A stretch of 64,000 nucleotides of DNA from an uncultured Caldilineales bacterium (GCA_964460135.1 CAYWPZ010000001.1:7469-71468); one strand, 5' to 3'; counted from the stretch's first letter, positions 51,928-57,073 are shown. A program made the numbers and translations. Notes: generated by a model from the letters alone, not told the origin.

Positions 51928-52381
51928 ATGAATGCCATCGAAGTCCAGGCCCTGCGCTGCGTCTACCAGGCCAAGACGGGCATCCTCCGCCGCGCGGCCA
52001 AGGAAGTCGTGGCGGTGGAGGGCGTCAGTTTTGCCGTCGCGCAGGGCGAGTTGCTTGGCTTGCTCGGTCCCAACGGCGCCGGCAAAACGACCACGATCAA
52101 GATGCTGACCACGTTGCTGATCCCGACCAGCGGCGCCGCAACCATCCTCGGCTTTGATCTGGTCAAGCAGGCCGAGAAGGTGCGCCCGCTATCTCCTGGC
52201 CCCCTACTGGGCTGCCCGCGCCCTCCACGCCACCTCCAGCGGCCAGACTTCGCTGGCCGACGCCGATCTCAGTTGGGCCATCCTCAGCGCCCTCAGCCTG
52301 ATCTACCTCGCGCTTTCGCGCTGGCTATTCCTCCGGATGCTTCATAAAGCCCGCGTCGAGGCGACGTTGGGGGCGATGTGA
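51928..52381 (+). pseudogene. Remnant of an ABC transporter: ATPase N-terminal ~87 aa (Walker A) joined out of frame to a permease-like C-terminal TM tail
   Basis: GPNGAGKTT ... ILGFDLVKQAEKVR, then the frame is lost near 52186. The second frame (52154-52381) encodes ..LSWAILSALSLIYLALSRWLF..., typical of a last TM helix. No Q-loop, signature or Walker B is present. Confidence 0.6.
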
Positions 52382-52458
52382 GCGAGATCGAGGTGTGATT
52401 CGTACAACTGTTCGATTTCGAGTATACTTGGGTACATCTTACTTGGGGTCAGAATTCT

Positions 52459-53457
52459 ATGTCTCAAGAGAGCGACCTGCCGTTCGGGAGCGAGTTCTCT
52501 CCCAGCCAAATCGACTTATCCGAAATCCTGGAAATTGTCGAAACGTACTCGGGGGATGTGCAGGCGTTGCAGGACGCGATCCAGGCTCGCTATTTCAGCG
52601 CACACGGCGGTGGAAGCGCCCGCAATCAGAAGACCCTGGCGATGAACTGCCGGCTGGGGATGAAGGCATACGGCATCATCGACGAGACAGCCACGATCAC
52701 AGCCTTTGGACGCAGGCTCTATCGAATCAGAGAGAATGGGCCGGCCTTGTACACCCTTCTGGCCAGACACATCCTGCTGCACTTGAAGGGCATGACGTTG
52801 GTGCAATGCATTCAAGATATGACGGCGGCCGGCGAGGAAGTCAATTTGACGACGCTGCGCCAGGCTTTGGCCGAGCGCGGCATCCACTATCCGGCGGGTG
52901 GCAAACATCCCAGTATGATGCGTTTGTGGCTTGTCAAAGCAGGCGTGTTTGTGGGCGCTCGTTGGCAGGTGGACAACCTGAGATTGAAAGAAGTGCTGGG
53001 CATCAACCCAGCCGACTTCGACACCCTTGCCCCTCTGACAGCCGCACAACGTTGTTTCTTGCTGGCGCTGGCCAATACAGGCCTCAGCACGCCGCAGCCG
53101 GCGAATGAGATTGCCCGGCTCGCTGCGGCAACTTATGGCGTTCGCTTCCCCGAGAAGAGCTTGCCCAAACTCGTGCTCAACGCCCTGGTCGAGGCTGGAT
53201 ACATTACCGCCACGAAGACGACCGAAGGTCGCGGGGCGAAACCCTTCCTGGTGTCACCCACCGAAAAACTGGTCCACGATGTGGTCGAGCCGCTGCTAGA
53301 ACAGATGAAGTCGCAGACGGATATGAAGCTGGTTCAGTTGATGCGCAAACCGCTTGCCGACGTCCTCGCCGAGCTTGACGCCCAAGACCGGTATATCGCT
53401 GGATTGGCGCTCGAAGCTCCTCCATCGTCATGGTCGATCGACGCGACCTCGATCTGA
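52459..53457 (+). CDS. Hypothetical 332-aa protein on the low-GC island; candidate restriction endonuclease or specificity partner of the adjacent methyltransferase
   Basis: ATG at 52459. Local GC is about 55% against a 68% background. It lies directly upstream of, and co-oriented with, the beta-class MTase. No family motif is recognisable by eye. Confidence 0.45.
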   Translation: MSQESDLPFGSEFSPSQIDLSEILEIVETYSGDVQALQDAIQARYFSAHGGGSARNQKTLAMNCRLGMKAYGIIDETATITAFGRRLYRIRENGPALYTLLARHILLHLKGMTLVQCIQDMTAAGEEVNLTTLRQALAERGIHYPAGGKHPSMMRLWLVKAGVFVGARWQVDNLRLKEVLGINPADFDTLAPLTAAQRCFLLALANTGLSTPQPANEIARLAAATYGVRFPEKSLPKLVLNALVEAGYITATKTTEGRGAKPFLVSPTEKLVHDVVEPLLEQMKSQTDMKLVQLMRKPLADVLAELDAQDRYIAGLALEAPPSSWSIDATSI

Positions 53458-53550
53458 TCCGAAACAAGCCAGTGCACATCGTCGACGCGTTCAACCGCGA
53501 AGCAAGTCATGCGATGACTCTCAAGAAGCTGGAAATTTAGCGAGGAAGTC

Positions 53551-54688
53551 ATGAGCGCCGAACACACGTCTACAGCTACCCTTTTCCTCGAAACCAGCCT
53601 CGGAAAAATCTATCAGGGCGATTCACTCCGCTTTCTCGCTGATCTGGAACCTGCCAATGCCGATCTGATCATAACCAGCCCTCCCTTCGGTTTGGTCAGG
53701 AAGAAAGAATATGGCAATGTCGAAGCCAACCAGTATCTAGACTGGTTCAAACCCTTTGCTGCACAATTTCACCGTGTGCTGAAGGAAACGGGCAGTCTTG
53801 TGATCGACATCGGCGGGGCCTGGAATCCGGGAACGCCGACGCGCAGCCTCTATCACTTCAAGCTGCTGATCATGCTTTGTGAGGAATTCGGCTTTCATCT
53901 CGCCCAGGATTTCTACTGGTGGAATCCTTCCAGGCTGCCCACGCCCGCCGAATGGGTGACAGTACGCCACATTCGCGTCAAAGACGCCATTGATACCGTT
54001 TGGTGGCTTTCCAAGACCCCCCTGGCCCAAGGCGAGCAATCGGCGTGTGCTGCAACCCTACAGCAACAGTATGCAAGAACTGCTCAAAAAGGGCTATCGA
54101 GCCAAAAAACGCCCCTCCGGCCACGACATCAGCGATAAATTCGCGGTGGACAACGGCGCTGCTATCCCTCCCAACCTGATCGCCATTCCAAATACCGAGA
54201 GCAACAGCCACTACCTCCGCTATTGTCAGGAACGAGCCATCACACCTCACCCCGCCCGCTACCCTGCCGCCCTGCCCGAATACTTCATTCGTATGCTGAC
54301 CGATAAAGGCGACCTGGTGTTCGATCCATTTGCCGGCAGCTGCGTCACCGGCGAAGTCGGCGAACGGCTTCAGCGACGCTGGTTGTGCGTTGAACTGGTC
54401 GAAGAGTACTTGCTCGGCGCCCGCGGTCGATTCGAACAAACTGGCATTCCCGAACCGGAGATCAAAACCGCAAGCGATGGGGATGACAACTATTATCGCA
54501 TGCCGCACCCTGGCATCCTCTGGAACGGCGCCACGGAGACGCCATTGGCTGCCGATGGCGGCAAGGCGCGGCATTTTTCCGGCGATCCGGCCAGAAGCGG
54601 CAGCCGGACGACGCCAGCACATGCTCCTCCAAGTCGCTCCTCCGCTCCCCTTCTCGACCTGCTTCGAGAGCAAACGTCTGATGCCTGA
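53551..54688 (+). pseudogene. Beta-class N4-cytosine/N6-adenine DNA methyltransferase (SPPF motif IV before FxGxG motif I), interrupted by a +1 frameshift in a C6 homopolymer (54017-54022)
   Basis: Frame 1 (53551-54138) carries IITSPPFG. Frame 2 (53990-54688) carries VFDPFAGSCVTG. Removing one C from gaCCCCCCtgg gives a continuous ..[20 protein letters not shown].. product. ATG is preceded by GAGGAAG. Confidence 0.7.
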
Positions 54689-54718
54689 TCAGTTCACTCA
54701 TCATCTCATCTTGCCCCG

Positions 54719-54768
54719 CCTCTCCGCCTCCCTCCGCATCTTCTTCTCCGGCGCCTGGCTCTCCCACA
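54719..54768. repeat. 50-bp direct repeat, left copy
   Basis: cctctccgccTccctccgcatcttcttctccggcgcctggctctccCaca, 48/50 identical to the copy at 55472-55521. Confidence 0.85.
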
Positions 54769-54798
54769 GACGCGGGTGAGAACGGCAGCGGCGGAGCC

Positions 54799-55116
54799 TC
54801 ATGCTGCCGCAGTGAGCGGCCGAATGCGGAACAATTCATCACTATGGCGCTGTTTGGATTCCCACAGGTCTCTTGCATGTTGCGCATTCAACCAGAATTC
54901 GGGAGAATTTCCGAAGAGGCGCGACAAACGTAGCGCCATCAACGGCGTCATGGAGCGCTCCTCTCTCAACAGTTCGTGAATCGTCTGCCGCGACACGCCC
55001 AGTTCCGCTGCCAGCGCACTGGCCGATAGCCCGTAGTCCGGCATGAAATCCTCGCGCAGCATCGCGCCAGGATGTGTTGGTGGAATTTGACGAGGCTCGT
55101 TATTTGCGAATGACAT
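54799..55116 (-). CDS. higA: HigA-family antitoxin (XRE-type HTH)
   Basis: Sequence ..LSASALAAELGVSRQTIHELLREERSMTPLMALRLSRLFGNSPEFWLNAQ.. ATG at 55116 behind GAGGAGAAAG, 10 nt after the higB stop. Confidence 0.85.
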   Translation of the reverse strand: MSFANNEPRQIPPTHPGAMLREDFMPDYGLSASALAAELGVSRQTIHELLREERSMTPLMALRLSRLFGNSPEFWLNAQHARDLWESKQRHSDELFRIRPLTAAA

Positions 55117-55126
55117 GGCTTTCTCC

Positions 55127-55408
55127 TCAATGATAATCGGTGACTTCGACATCGAAAGCGTCGCCGTCCACGAAACGAAAGCAAATGCGCCACTGATCAT
55201 TGATGGCGATCGACCACTGGCCTTCTCGGTCTCCCTTCAAGGCGTGCAAGCGGTTGCTCGGCGGTACTTTGAGATCATTCAAGTTCTGTGCCAGATCGAT
55301 GTACTCCAGCCTTCGCAGCGCCAGCTTCGCCAAATCTGGCGGCAGCCGCTTTGACTTGCCGCTGACATACAGCCGCTGCGTTTCTCTGTCAGCGAACGTC
55401 TGAATCAT
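55127..55408 (-). CDS. higB: HigB toxin (RelE/ParE superfamily)
   Basis: 93 aa, [14 protein letters not shown]...[21 protein letters not shown]. Toxin-first order as in HigB-HigA. Confidence 0.85.
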
Positions 55409-55471
55409 AGCCGAATGGTAATCCGTCACGTGACACCTGTCAATCCCCTCGCCCACCCTTTCCATGCCCAA

Positions 55472-55521
55472 CCTCTCCGCCCCCCTCCGCATCTTCTTCT
55501 CCGGCGCCTGGCTCTCCTACA
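55472..55521. repeat. 50-bp direct repeat, right copy
   Basis: cctctccgccCccctccgcatcttcttctccggcgcctggctctccTaca, about 100 bp upstream of rtcB. Confidence 0.85.
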
Positions 55522-55621
55522 TCAGCCTGTTTCGCAGGGCGCGGCCGGCTTCGGGCTGTTCAGCTGGTTCGAGACCATCGCCAAGCGAGTGACTTCAGCC
55601 AAGCCAAAAATCGATCAAACT

Positions 55622-57073
55622 ATGGTCGCCCGCAAAGACCTGCGCCAAATCAACCCCTACCTGTACGAGATTGCCTGTGAATTTCGCCAGGATATGCGCG
55701 TCCCCGCCCGCATCTACGCCGACGAAGCCATCTTGCAGGCGGCCCTGCGCGACCAATCCATCGACCAATTGGTCAACACCGCCACCCTGCCCGGCATCGT
55801 CCAATATGCCCTGGCCATGCCCGACATCCACCAGGGCTACGGTTTCTCCATCGGCGGCGTGGTGGCCACCCGCGCCGATGACGGCGTCATCTCGCCCGGC
55901 GGGGTGGGTTATGACATCAATTGCGGCGTCCGGCTGCTGGCCTCGGACATGGAGGAGGGCGAAGTGCGGCCTTACATGGAAGATCTGGCCACCGCCCTCT
56001 CCCAAAAAATCCCCAGCGGCGTCGGCGTCGGGGGCTTCATCCGCCTCAGCGACCAGGAGATGGAGCAAGTGCTGGAAACCGGGGCGCGCTGGACGCTGAA
56101 GCGAGGCATGGCGCGCAAAGAGGACCTCATCCACACCGAAGAAGAAGGCTCGATGCCCGGCGCTCGCGCCGACAAAGTCAGCCGCGAGGCCAAGAAACGC
56201 GGCCGGGATCAACTCGGCACCCTGGGCGCAGGCAATCACTTTGCCGAGATCGATGTCGTCGATGAGATTTTCGACCAGGAACTGGCCCGCGCCTTTGGCC
56301 TCTTCCCCGGCCAGGTCGTGCTGCAAATCCATTGTGGCTCGCGCGGGCTGGGACACCAGGTCTGTACCGATTATGTCAACACCTTCCAGGCCGTCGTCAA
56401 ACACTACGGCATCGTCCTGCCCGACCGCCAGCTGGTGTGCGCGCCGGTGAAATCGGCCGAAGGGCAAGATTACATCGCCGCCATGGCTGCCGCCGCCAAC
56501 TTTGCCTGGGCCAATCGCCAGGCCCTCAGCCACCAGGCCCGGCAGGCATTCGCCGATGTGTTGGCCGGCAAAGTACGCGGCTACGACCTGCGCCTGGTCT
56601 ACGACATCGCCCACAACATGGCCAAGCTGGAGACGCACGAGGTGGAGGGCCGCAACCTGCGGGTCTGCGTCCATCGCAAGGGCGCCACCCGCGCCTTTGG
56701 CCCTGGCAGCCCTGTCCTCCCGCCCGACTATCGCCAGGCCGGGCAGCCGGTGTTTGCGCCGGGCAGCATGGGCACGGCCAGCTATGTGCTGGCTGGCACC
56801 GAAGGCTCGATGCGCCAGACCTTTGGCTCCACCTGCCACGGCGCCGGCCGCCAGATGAGCCGCGCCGCCGCCAAGAAACAGGTGCAGGGCGGCAGGCTGA
56901 AGCACGAACTGGAAGAGGGCGGGGTGGTGGTGCGCGCCGGCAGCCTGGCCGGGCTGGCCGAAGAGGCCCCCATCGCCTACAAGGACGTGAGCCGGGTGGT
57001 GGATGTCGTTCACAACGCCGGCATCGCCCGCAAAGTGGCCCGGCTGCGGCCGATCGGCGTCGTCAAAGGCTGA
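55622..57073 (+). CDS. rtcB: RNA-splicing ligase RtcB
   Basis: N-terminus aligns with archaeal and bacterial RtcB (..[38 protein letters not shown]..). The C-terminus ..[20 protein letters not shown] aligns as well. Confidence 0.92.

Follow-up and report, generated by a model that had tools for sequence, protein, structure and literature searches.

The window is a single stretch of 64,000 nt, and all positions are counted from its first letter. The locus described here (51928–57073) begins with what is left of an ABC-transporter operon. An ATPase remnant (51928–52188, plus strand) retains residues 1–87 of about 325; in tblastn it is 76% identical to the ATPase of the related locus L097 over aa 1–87, and the Pfam ABC_tran profile is matched at positions 2–52 only. 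Next comes the C-terminal remnant, the last ~63 aa, of the first of two ABC-2 permease genes of the operon, which we call perm1 (52190–52381, plus strand; stop codon at 52379–52381). It was identified by tblastn matches to perm1 of L096 (aa 187–249, 87%) and of L097 (aa 197–257, 67%). A decayed R-M block follows on the plus strand (52397–54688), recognized by PF01555 matches on both halves of its methylase and by DNA identity to three loci elsewhere (L099, L100, and L103). Between this block and the intact RNA ligase gene rtcB (55622–57073, plus strand; PF01139, E = 9e-174) lies a toxin–antitoxin (TA) pair enclosed by two copies of a direct repeat. The GC content over ~52.3–55.6 kb is 0.54–0.61, compared with ~0.62–0.75 (mostly 0.65–0.72) in the flanks.

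The TA pair consists of higA, encoding an antitoxin of 105 aa (54799–55116; HTH_3, E = 7.8e-8), and higB, encoding a toxin of 93 aa (55127–55408; PF05015, E = 8.1e-21, profile positions 2–91 of 91). Both genes are intact and lie on the minus strand, where higB precedes higA with a gap of 10 nt. Together they are the sole intact unit of the island. A promoter scan places a TTGACA-17 nt-TACCAT promoter (10/12 matches) at 55415–55443 on the minus strand, at the right edge of the module. Its −10 box ends 6 nt before the ATG of higB, so the higB transcript is probably leaderless.

We found 3784 homologues of HigB, the nearest of which is 86% identical. Three closely related modules (L086, L092, and L094; HigB 84–86%) lie in unrelated gene contexts, for example between kinase and methyltransferase genes or between amidohydrolase and antiporter genes, and their HigA proteins are of the same length as the HigA of the window and can be aligned with it. 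In the four modules, which come from three different contexts, DNA homology runs only from the TTGACA −35 box to the higA stop codon. The promoter is conserved across all four as TTGACA-17-TAC(C/A)AT, and so is a palindrome in its spacer, GTCACGTGAC (55425–55434). This palindrome is a candidate HigA operator. In its longer form, (T)GTCACGTGAC(A), it is a palindrome of 10–12 nt between the −35 and −10 boxes that recurs in modules from three genomic contexts; a TGTCACGTGACA palindrome in the promoter spacer is likewise conserved across modules.

The prototypes of HigBA are those of plasmid Rts1, Vibrio cholerae, and Proteus vulgaris. Judged by its sequence, the module of the window belongs to the same type II TA family: it has a full-length PF05015 toxin of 93 aa, an HTH_3 antitoxin of 105 aa, the toxin gene first, a 10-nt gap, and a sigma-70-type promoter of its own whose −35 and −10 boxes enclose a palindrome. 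No unusual difference was seen; the module is a Caldilineales copy from the environment, and its HigB shares no more than 86% identity with the closest one known. HigB is expected to be a ribosome-dependent mRNA endonuclease that is neutralized by HigA, and HigA would also repress its own promoter through the palindrome.

A repeat search over 52–58 kb returned a single strong repeat family, a direct repeat of 57 nt at 54712–54768 and 55465–55521. The copies are identical at 53/57 positions (93%), are spaced 753 nt from start to start, and share a longest exact run of 35 nt (54730–54764 = 55483–55517). The sequence-only reading had described 50-bp repeats at 54719–54768 and 55472–55521, identical at 48 of 50 positions, that bracket higBA as a unit of about 753 bp, exceed what chance would produce, and end 100 bp before rtcB. 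This description stands on each count. A direct read of both copies gives 48/50; intact higA and higB lie between the copies at a spacing of 753; and the distance from the right copy to the ATG of rtcB at 55622 is 100 nt. A 33-nt core of the repeat occurs only twice in the 64-kb window with up to three mismatches allowed, and matches to it were found in 0/100 dinucleotide-preserving shuffles of the window. Between the left copy and the higA stop codon lie 30 nt, and between the higB start and the right copy 56 nt. The repeat is pyrimidine-rich on one strand and has no inverted-repeat structure.

The same two-copy structure is present in a contig of metagenome sample 3300037501 (100% identity over 5.2 kb) and in a contig of sample 3300043177 (2 differences in 3554 nt). 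Its occurrence in contigs from two different samples shows that it is not an assembly artefact. The sole difference between samples inside the repeat region is a T to G change in L003 at the site matching window position 54712; it affects the first base of the left copy and is a polymorphism in a decaying fragment.

The nature of the repeat became clear from related loci. A scan of the metagenome collection with a 22-nt core found two further contigs (L084 and L085) with one copy each. In both, the core stands at the very start of an intact ORF of 266 aa that encodes an ABC-2 transporter permease (PF01061), here named perm2. Over 100 homologues have this same length of 266 aa, which identifies the ATG within the repeat as the genuine start codon. 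We compared four related Caldilineales loci (L084, L085, L096, and L097) that lack higBA and have a single repeat copy. A search with a degenerate form of the core gave a single hit in each of these loci, all of which have an intact perm2; two hits were obtained only in the higBA haplotype. The order in L085 is the perm1 stop codon, a spacer of ~85 nt, perm2, a gene for a 489-aa membrane protein, a small ORF, and rtcB, whose product shares 93% aa identity with the RtcB of the window. L084 has R (Mrr_cat), an intact 400-aa methylase, perm2, and the membrane protein gene. In L096, the perm1 stop codon overlaps the perm2 start, and L097 has the order ATPase-perm1-perm2.

The two copies in the window can be read accordingly as perm2 sequence. 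The left copy, DR-L (54711–54768, plus strand), corresponds to perm2 nt 1–58 and follows the 3′ flank of the methylase without a break, just as perm2 does in L084. Its start codon is mutated to TTG, and Tyr19 is changed to His. The window is collinear with L084 over 53423–54763, from the end of R through the methylase and into perm2, and homology ends at 54763–54768; this collinearity identifies the left copy as perm2 nt 1–58 in an L084-like position after the methylase. Beyond it lies a joint of 30 nt (54769–54798), which is the left, non-homologous joint of the insertion. These 30 nt matched nothing in the window or in the fetched loci except the same haplotype, and they share no homology with the 3′ flanks of the other higBA modules.

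The right copy, DR-R (55464–55521), has an intact ATG and reads on to perm2 nt 84 (55464–55546, plus strand; 86% identity to perm2 nt 1–84 of L084 and L085). Ahead of it, 14 nt or more of the native perm2 upstream region are preserved (55450–55463, plus strand). The blastn alignment to L085 extends from 55450, and an alignment to the L085 spacer reaches ‘CGCCCAC’. Directly after nt 84 come the last ~42 nt of perm2 (55546–55587, plus strand; 90–95% identity to L084, L085, and L096; tblastn aa 246–259, 100%). The sequence 55588–55621, directly 5′ of rtcB on the plus strand, is native to rtcB, as comparison with L085 (3640–3960 and 5380–5560) indicates.

From these alignments, we hold with high confidence that the repeat represents two copies of the 5′ end (nt 1–58: start codon and codons 2–19) of the host gene perm2 and not the end of an element. 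The repeat itself very likely has no function of its own and would be the scar of the recombination that put higBA beside the perm2 start. The sequence-only reading proposed looking for the 50-mer as an att site in related strains that lack higBA. All four such relatives do carry one copy in the same place, as that reading predicts, but that copy is the start of a host permease gene, which does not support an attachment site.

Site-specific integration, with the 50-mer as the att site and higBA as the cargo of a small integrative element moved by a recombinase, would account for direct repeats at both ends of the insert and for the single copy at the same position in insert-free relatives. We nevertheless regard it as very unlikely. 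The 753-bp unit holds only higB and higA, and no integrase, recombinase, or transposase gene lies within ~15 kb; no recombinase domain was found in the genes across ~38–64 kb of the window, which include the island, the downstream genes, and ten large ORFs upstream. The repeat is host coding sequence, and the conserved DNA of the module does not extend past the −35 box on one side or the higA stop codon on the other. None of the independent modules L086, L092, and L094 has flanking direct repeats. Internal symmetry and a hairpin are lacking in the repeat, viral contigs do not contain its core, and no phage match was obtained for the region. A plasmid search with the region returned only short, distant matches to the HigB gene on alphaproteobacterial plasmids, and an Rfam search returned no family. 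Finally, no empty or circular form of the higBA haplotype was found: when excised or alternative forms were sought by exact matches to the RtcB, HigB, and methylase-fragment proteins, the same structure alone was retrieved, in two samples.

A TA pair between direct repeats of ~50–60 nt also resembles the cassettes of superintegrons; in the superintegron of V. cholerae, higBA cassettes are bounded by attC (VCR) repeats. The likeness is one of higBA lying between direct repeats of tens of bases. That the pair is an integron-type gene cassette with attC-like sites is nonetheless almost certainly wrong. The two copies fold no better than shuffled sequences (−2.8 and −1.7 kcal mol−1; z = +0.7 and +1.0), there is no intI nearby, and the module carries its own promoter. 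With two repeat copies in 64 kb, there is no array. Whereas the V. cholerae cassettes have attC structure, an integron integrase, and a cassette array, the window has none of these, and its repeat is coding sequence of the host, the start of a permease gene.

Insertion by a transposon with duplication of its target site would equally leave duplicated host sequence around an inserted block. Known transposase target duplications measure ~2–15 bp, and the duplication here, at least 57 nt, is far above this range. The 936-bp region 54690–55625 contains neither terminal inverted repeats nor a transposase gene, and the other copies of the module have no duplications. A transposon-like event is thus extremely improbable.

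The limits of the module (promoter to stop codon), its relatives in unrelated contexts, and the single-copy loci without it all support higBA as a discrete, separately acquired unit. To this extent, the proposal that the pair arrived or can leave by itself holds for its arrival; as for its exit, excised and circular forms were looked for and not seen. In E. coli, identity over some 25 nt is about the minimum for RecA-dependent recombination, and an exchange within the identical core of 35 nt could in principle remove the 753-bp unit, at low frequency.

How did perm2 sequence come to lie on both sides of the module? Most likely, a higBA module reaching from promoter to stop codon recombined in at the perm2 start, thereby duplicating the perm2 5′ end or bringing one along. 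The comparison shows three steps. The R-M block entered between perm1 and perm2 in an event shared with L084. In the window lineage, a 644-bp higBA module (promoter with candidate operator, higB, and higA), together with the 30 nt of the left joint, now lies between perm2 5′ ends. To its left is the 58-nt perm2 5′ fragment, and to its right a second perm2 5′ end with native upstream bases and a start codon. Deletions later removed the membrane protein gene and the greater part of perm2, perm1, and the ATPase gene. We infer that the insertion used the general recombination of the host and not a dedicated recombinase.

In the version that we favor, the incoming DNA would have carried higBA joined to its own perm2 5′ allele. 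On the right, it would have recombined by homology, within perm2 or farther along; on the left, it would have been joined illegitimately at perm2 nt 58. Such an event can be described as one-ended recombination facilitated by homology or, with the same outcome, as the integration of a circularized fragment through a single crossover; in either form, both anchor copies are kept. The evidence comes from the five positions at which DR-L and DR-R differ (perm2 nt 1, 7, 8, 19, and 55). At nt 7, 8, and 19, DR-L agrees with L096, and at nt 7 and 8, DR-R agrees with L085. These states hint at two alleles, one of them a perm2 start supplied by the incoming DNA. Three sites, all in the codons under least constraint, carry this argument, and we give allelic import of DR-R with higBA about an even chance. 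The corresponding donor arrangement, with higBA directly upstream of an intact perm2, was not found among the loci of HigB and methylase homologues, nor was a pre-insertion genome of the window lineage found through methylase homologues.

The serious rival is duplication in place followed by decay. The module would have been captured during repair or replication at the resident perm2 start, through template switching or fill-in of widely staggered breaks, and the same resident 58–80 nt would have been copied on both sides; the left fragment would then have decayed, and selection would have preserved the right copy up to the deletion of perm2. Both copies have derived bases at nt 51 and 54 that occur in no relative; duplication in place and two closely related alleles would fit this pattern equally well. 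Of the five differences, the lost ATG and the Tyr to His change are private to DR-L, as in a decaying fragment, and the right copy retains native upstream bases and its ATG. Against this, the other three differences coincide with states of other lineages, which random decay would rarely produce. The copies have diverged by 8.6%, compared with 99.9–100% identity of the haplotype between samples, and no microhomology or donor sequence was identified at the joints. On balance, we consider duplication in place a real possibility, although not a probable course of events.

The order in the window (resident perm2 5′ fragment, non-homologous joint, foreign block, and a second perm2 5′ end that reads on into the gene) matches the product expected when a circular fragment with a short piece of chromosome integrates through a single crossover. 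When a circle with a chromosomal segment integrates in E. coli by a single crossover, the segment is left duplicated around the insert (PMC3240628). Classical homology-facilitated illegitimate recombination (HFIR), described by de Vries and Wackernagel (2002) and Prudhomme et al. (2002) as cited in PMC3240628, mostly gives deletions (PMC3240628). The structure in the window shares with Campbell-type and HFIR integration a foreign block between two copies of a short resident segment, with no dedicated recombinase, and one side contiguous with the resident gene while the other joint is without homology. It differs in that the anchor is 58–80 nt here versus 109–950 bp in the E. coli experiments (PMC3240628). 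Moreover, the event in the window is deduced from its product and is a duplication, whereas classical HFIR usually deletes. We see here a new instance of a known TA family in a recombination scar of a known kind, an ordinary finding.

A second comparison is with arrays of T6SS effector–immunity and Rhs orphan modules, for which growth by one-ended recombination has been proposed (PMC5361080). In those arrays as in the window, cargo modules are stacked in succession at a single hotspot beside a conserved gene end, and displaced gene fragments remain. Here, however, there are two cargo units only, R-M and then higBA, and the conserved gene, now destroyed, encodes a transporter permease that has no relation to the cargo. 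We tentatively mention, as a rather unlikely extension, that the perm1–perm2 junction might, in these Caldilineales, be a recurrent hotspot at which the first ~60–80 nt of perm2 serve as a portable homology handle that travels with cargo. If so, R-M and then higBA would have been stacked by one-ended recombination without a recombinase, each time leaving a copy of the handle.

The spacer of ~85 nt between perm1 and perm2 in L085 (6254–6342, minus strand) is a separate observation. Its first ~20 nt resemble the window sequence after the perm1 stop codon, and the spacer might be what remains of an insert that this hotspot gained and lost earlier. As a relic of the higBA promoter it was rejected: once the known perm2-upstream homology is set aside, its match is no better than that of shuffled sequences (36/200).

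The R-M block has a history separate from that of higBA, as the sequence-only reading had proposed. Its insertion between perm1 and perm2 is common to the window and L084. Elsewhere, in the Logan contigs L099, L100, and L103, homologous DNA (87–89% identity over 52397–52868 and 53420–54664) adjoins NUDIX and NAD-dependent ligase (LigA) genes, and neither higBA nor a repeat or perm2 fragment lies beside it there. The association with NUDIX and ligase genes elsewhere points to an independently mobile module. In the window, the R-M system adjoining higBA is dead. An R-like ORF (52459–53457) lacks the Mrr_cat nuclease core, and of the L084 R, which contains Mrr_cat, no more than the final 38 aa have a counterpart in the window, read in a different frame (53424–53537). 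The N4/N6 methylase gene (~53485–54688) is split by a +1 frameshift near 54017, a 1-nt insertion relative to an intact homologue of 390 aa. The nearest methylase homologue (81% aa identity) is in an unrelated context, next to NUDIX and LigA.

The transporter operon has fared no better. From the related loci, the ancestral order is reconstructed as ATPase-perm1-perm2-membrane protein-rtcB. A deletion of ~1.3 kb fuses ATPase residues 1–87 to the last ~63 residues of perm1 (joint at 52188/52190), and an internal deletion of ~650 bp joins perm2 nt 84 to the last ~42 nt of that gene. Before rtcB, ~1.75 kb are deleted that in L085 contain the perm2 stop codon, the gene for the 489-aa membrane protein, and the small ORF; tblastn found no membrane protein gene in the window. 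The deletions in ATPase and perm1, in perm2, and of the membrane protein gene together mean that the whole operon is destroyed in the window lineage. The TA pair alone is intact among a broken transporter operon and a broken R-M system, which speaks of selfish persistence; the addiction property of HigBA would explain an intact pair amid decaying neighbors.

The present neighborhood of rtcB is a product of the same deletions. Upstream of rtcB, only ~35 nt are ancestral, and higBA and rtcB are adjacent because of the deletions. The suggestion that excision would restore an rtcB promoter context does not survive the comparison with L085, whose ancestral context was removed in the window by separate deletions. 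The perm2 remnant and the ~35 ancestral nt would persist after excision, and the ancestral upstream region of rtcB would therefore not be recreated. Among 80 rtcB loci of GTDB, none has perm2, the membrane protein gene, or higBA beside rtcB; the species of the window is not among the GTDB representatives, and the best RtcB match there is 88%.

As it stands, a gene for a ribosome-dependent RNase toxin, higB, adjoins one for an RNA-repair ligase, rtcB (55127–57073). A functional link between the two, in which RtcB repairs RNA cut by the toxin, was weighed but set aside: the adjacency arose by deletions, and it is absent at the 80 other rtcB loci and at the other higBA loci examined.

Two points apply more widely. 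The higBA of the window is a “naked” TA pair, without mobility genes, delimited from promoter to stop codon and apparently placed by the recombination of its host; a long direct repeat around a TA pair thus need not be an attachment site. When genomes are scanned, flanking repeats should be compared with the empty site in relatives before they are called the ends of an element.

One further observation concerns rtcB itself. The window gene has no intein, whereas in related Caldilineales/Chloroflexota MAGs (L024:6171–9149, and also L033 and L036) rtcB is split by an in-frame insertion of ~1.5 kb after about residue 100. In L024, the rtcB ORF encodes 993 aa and contains an Intein_splicing domain (PF14890) inside RtcB.
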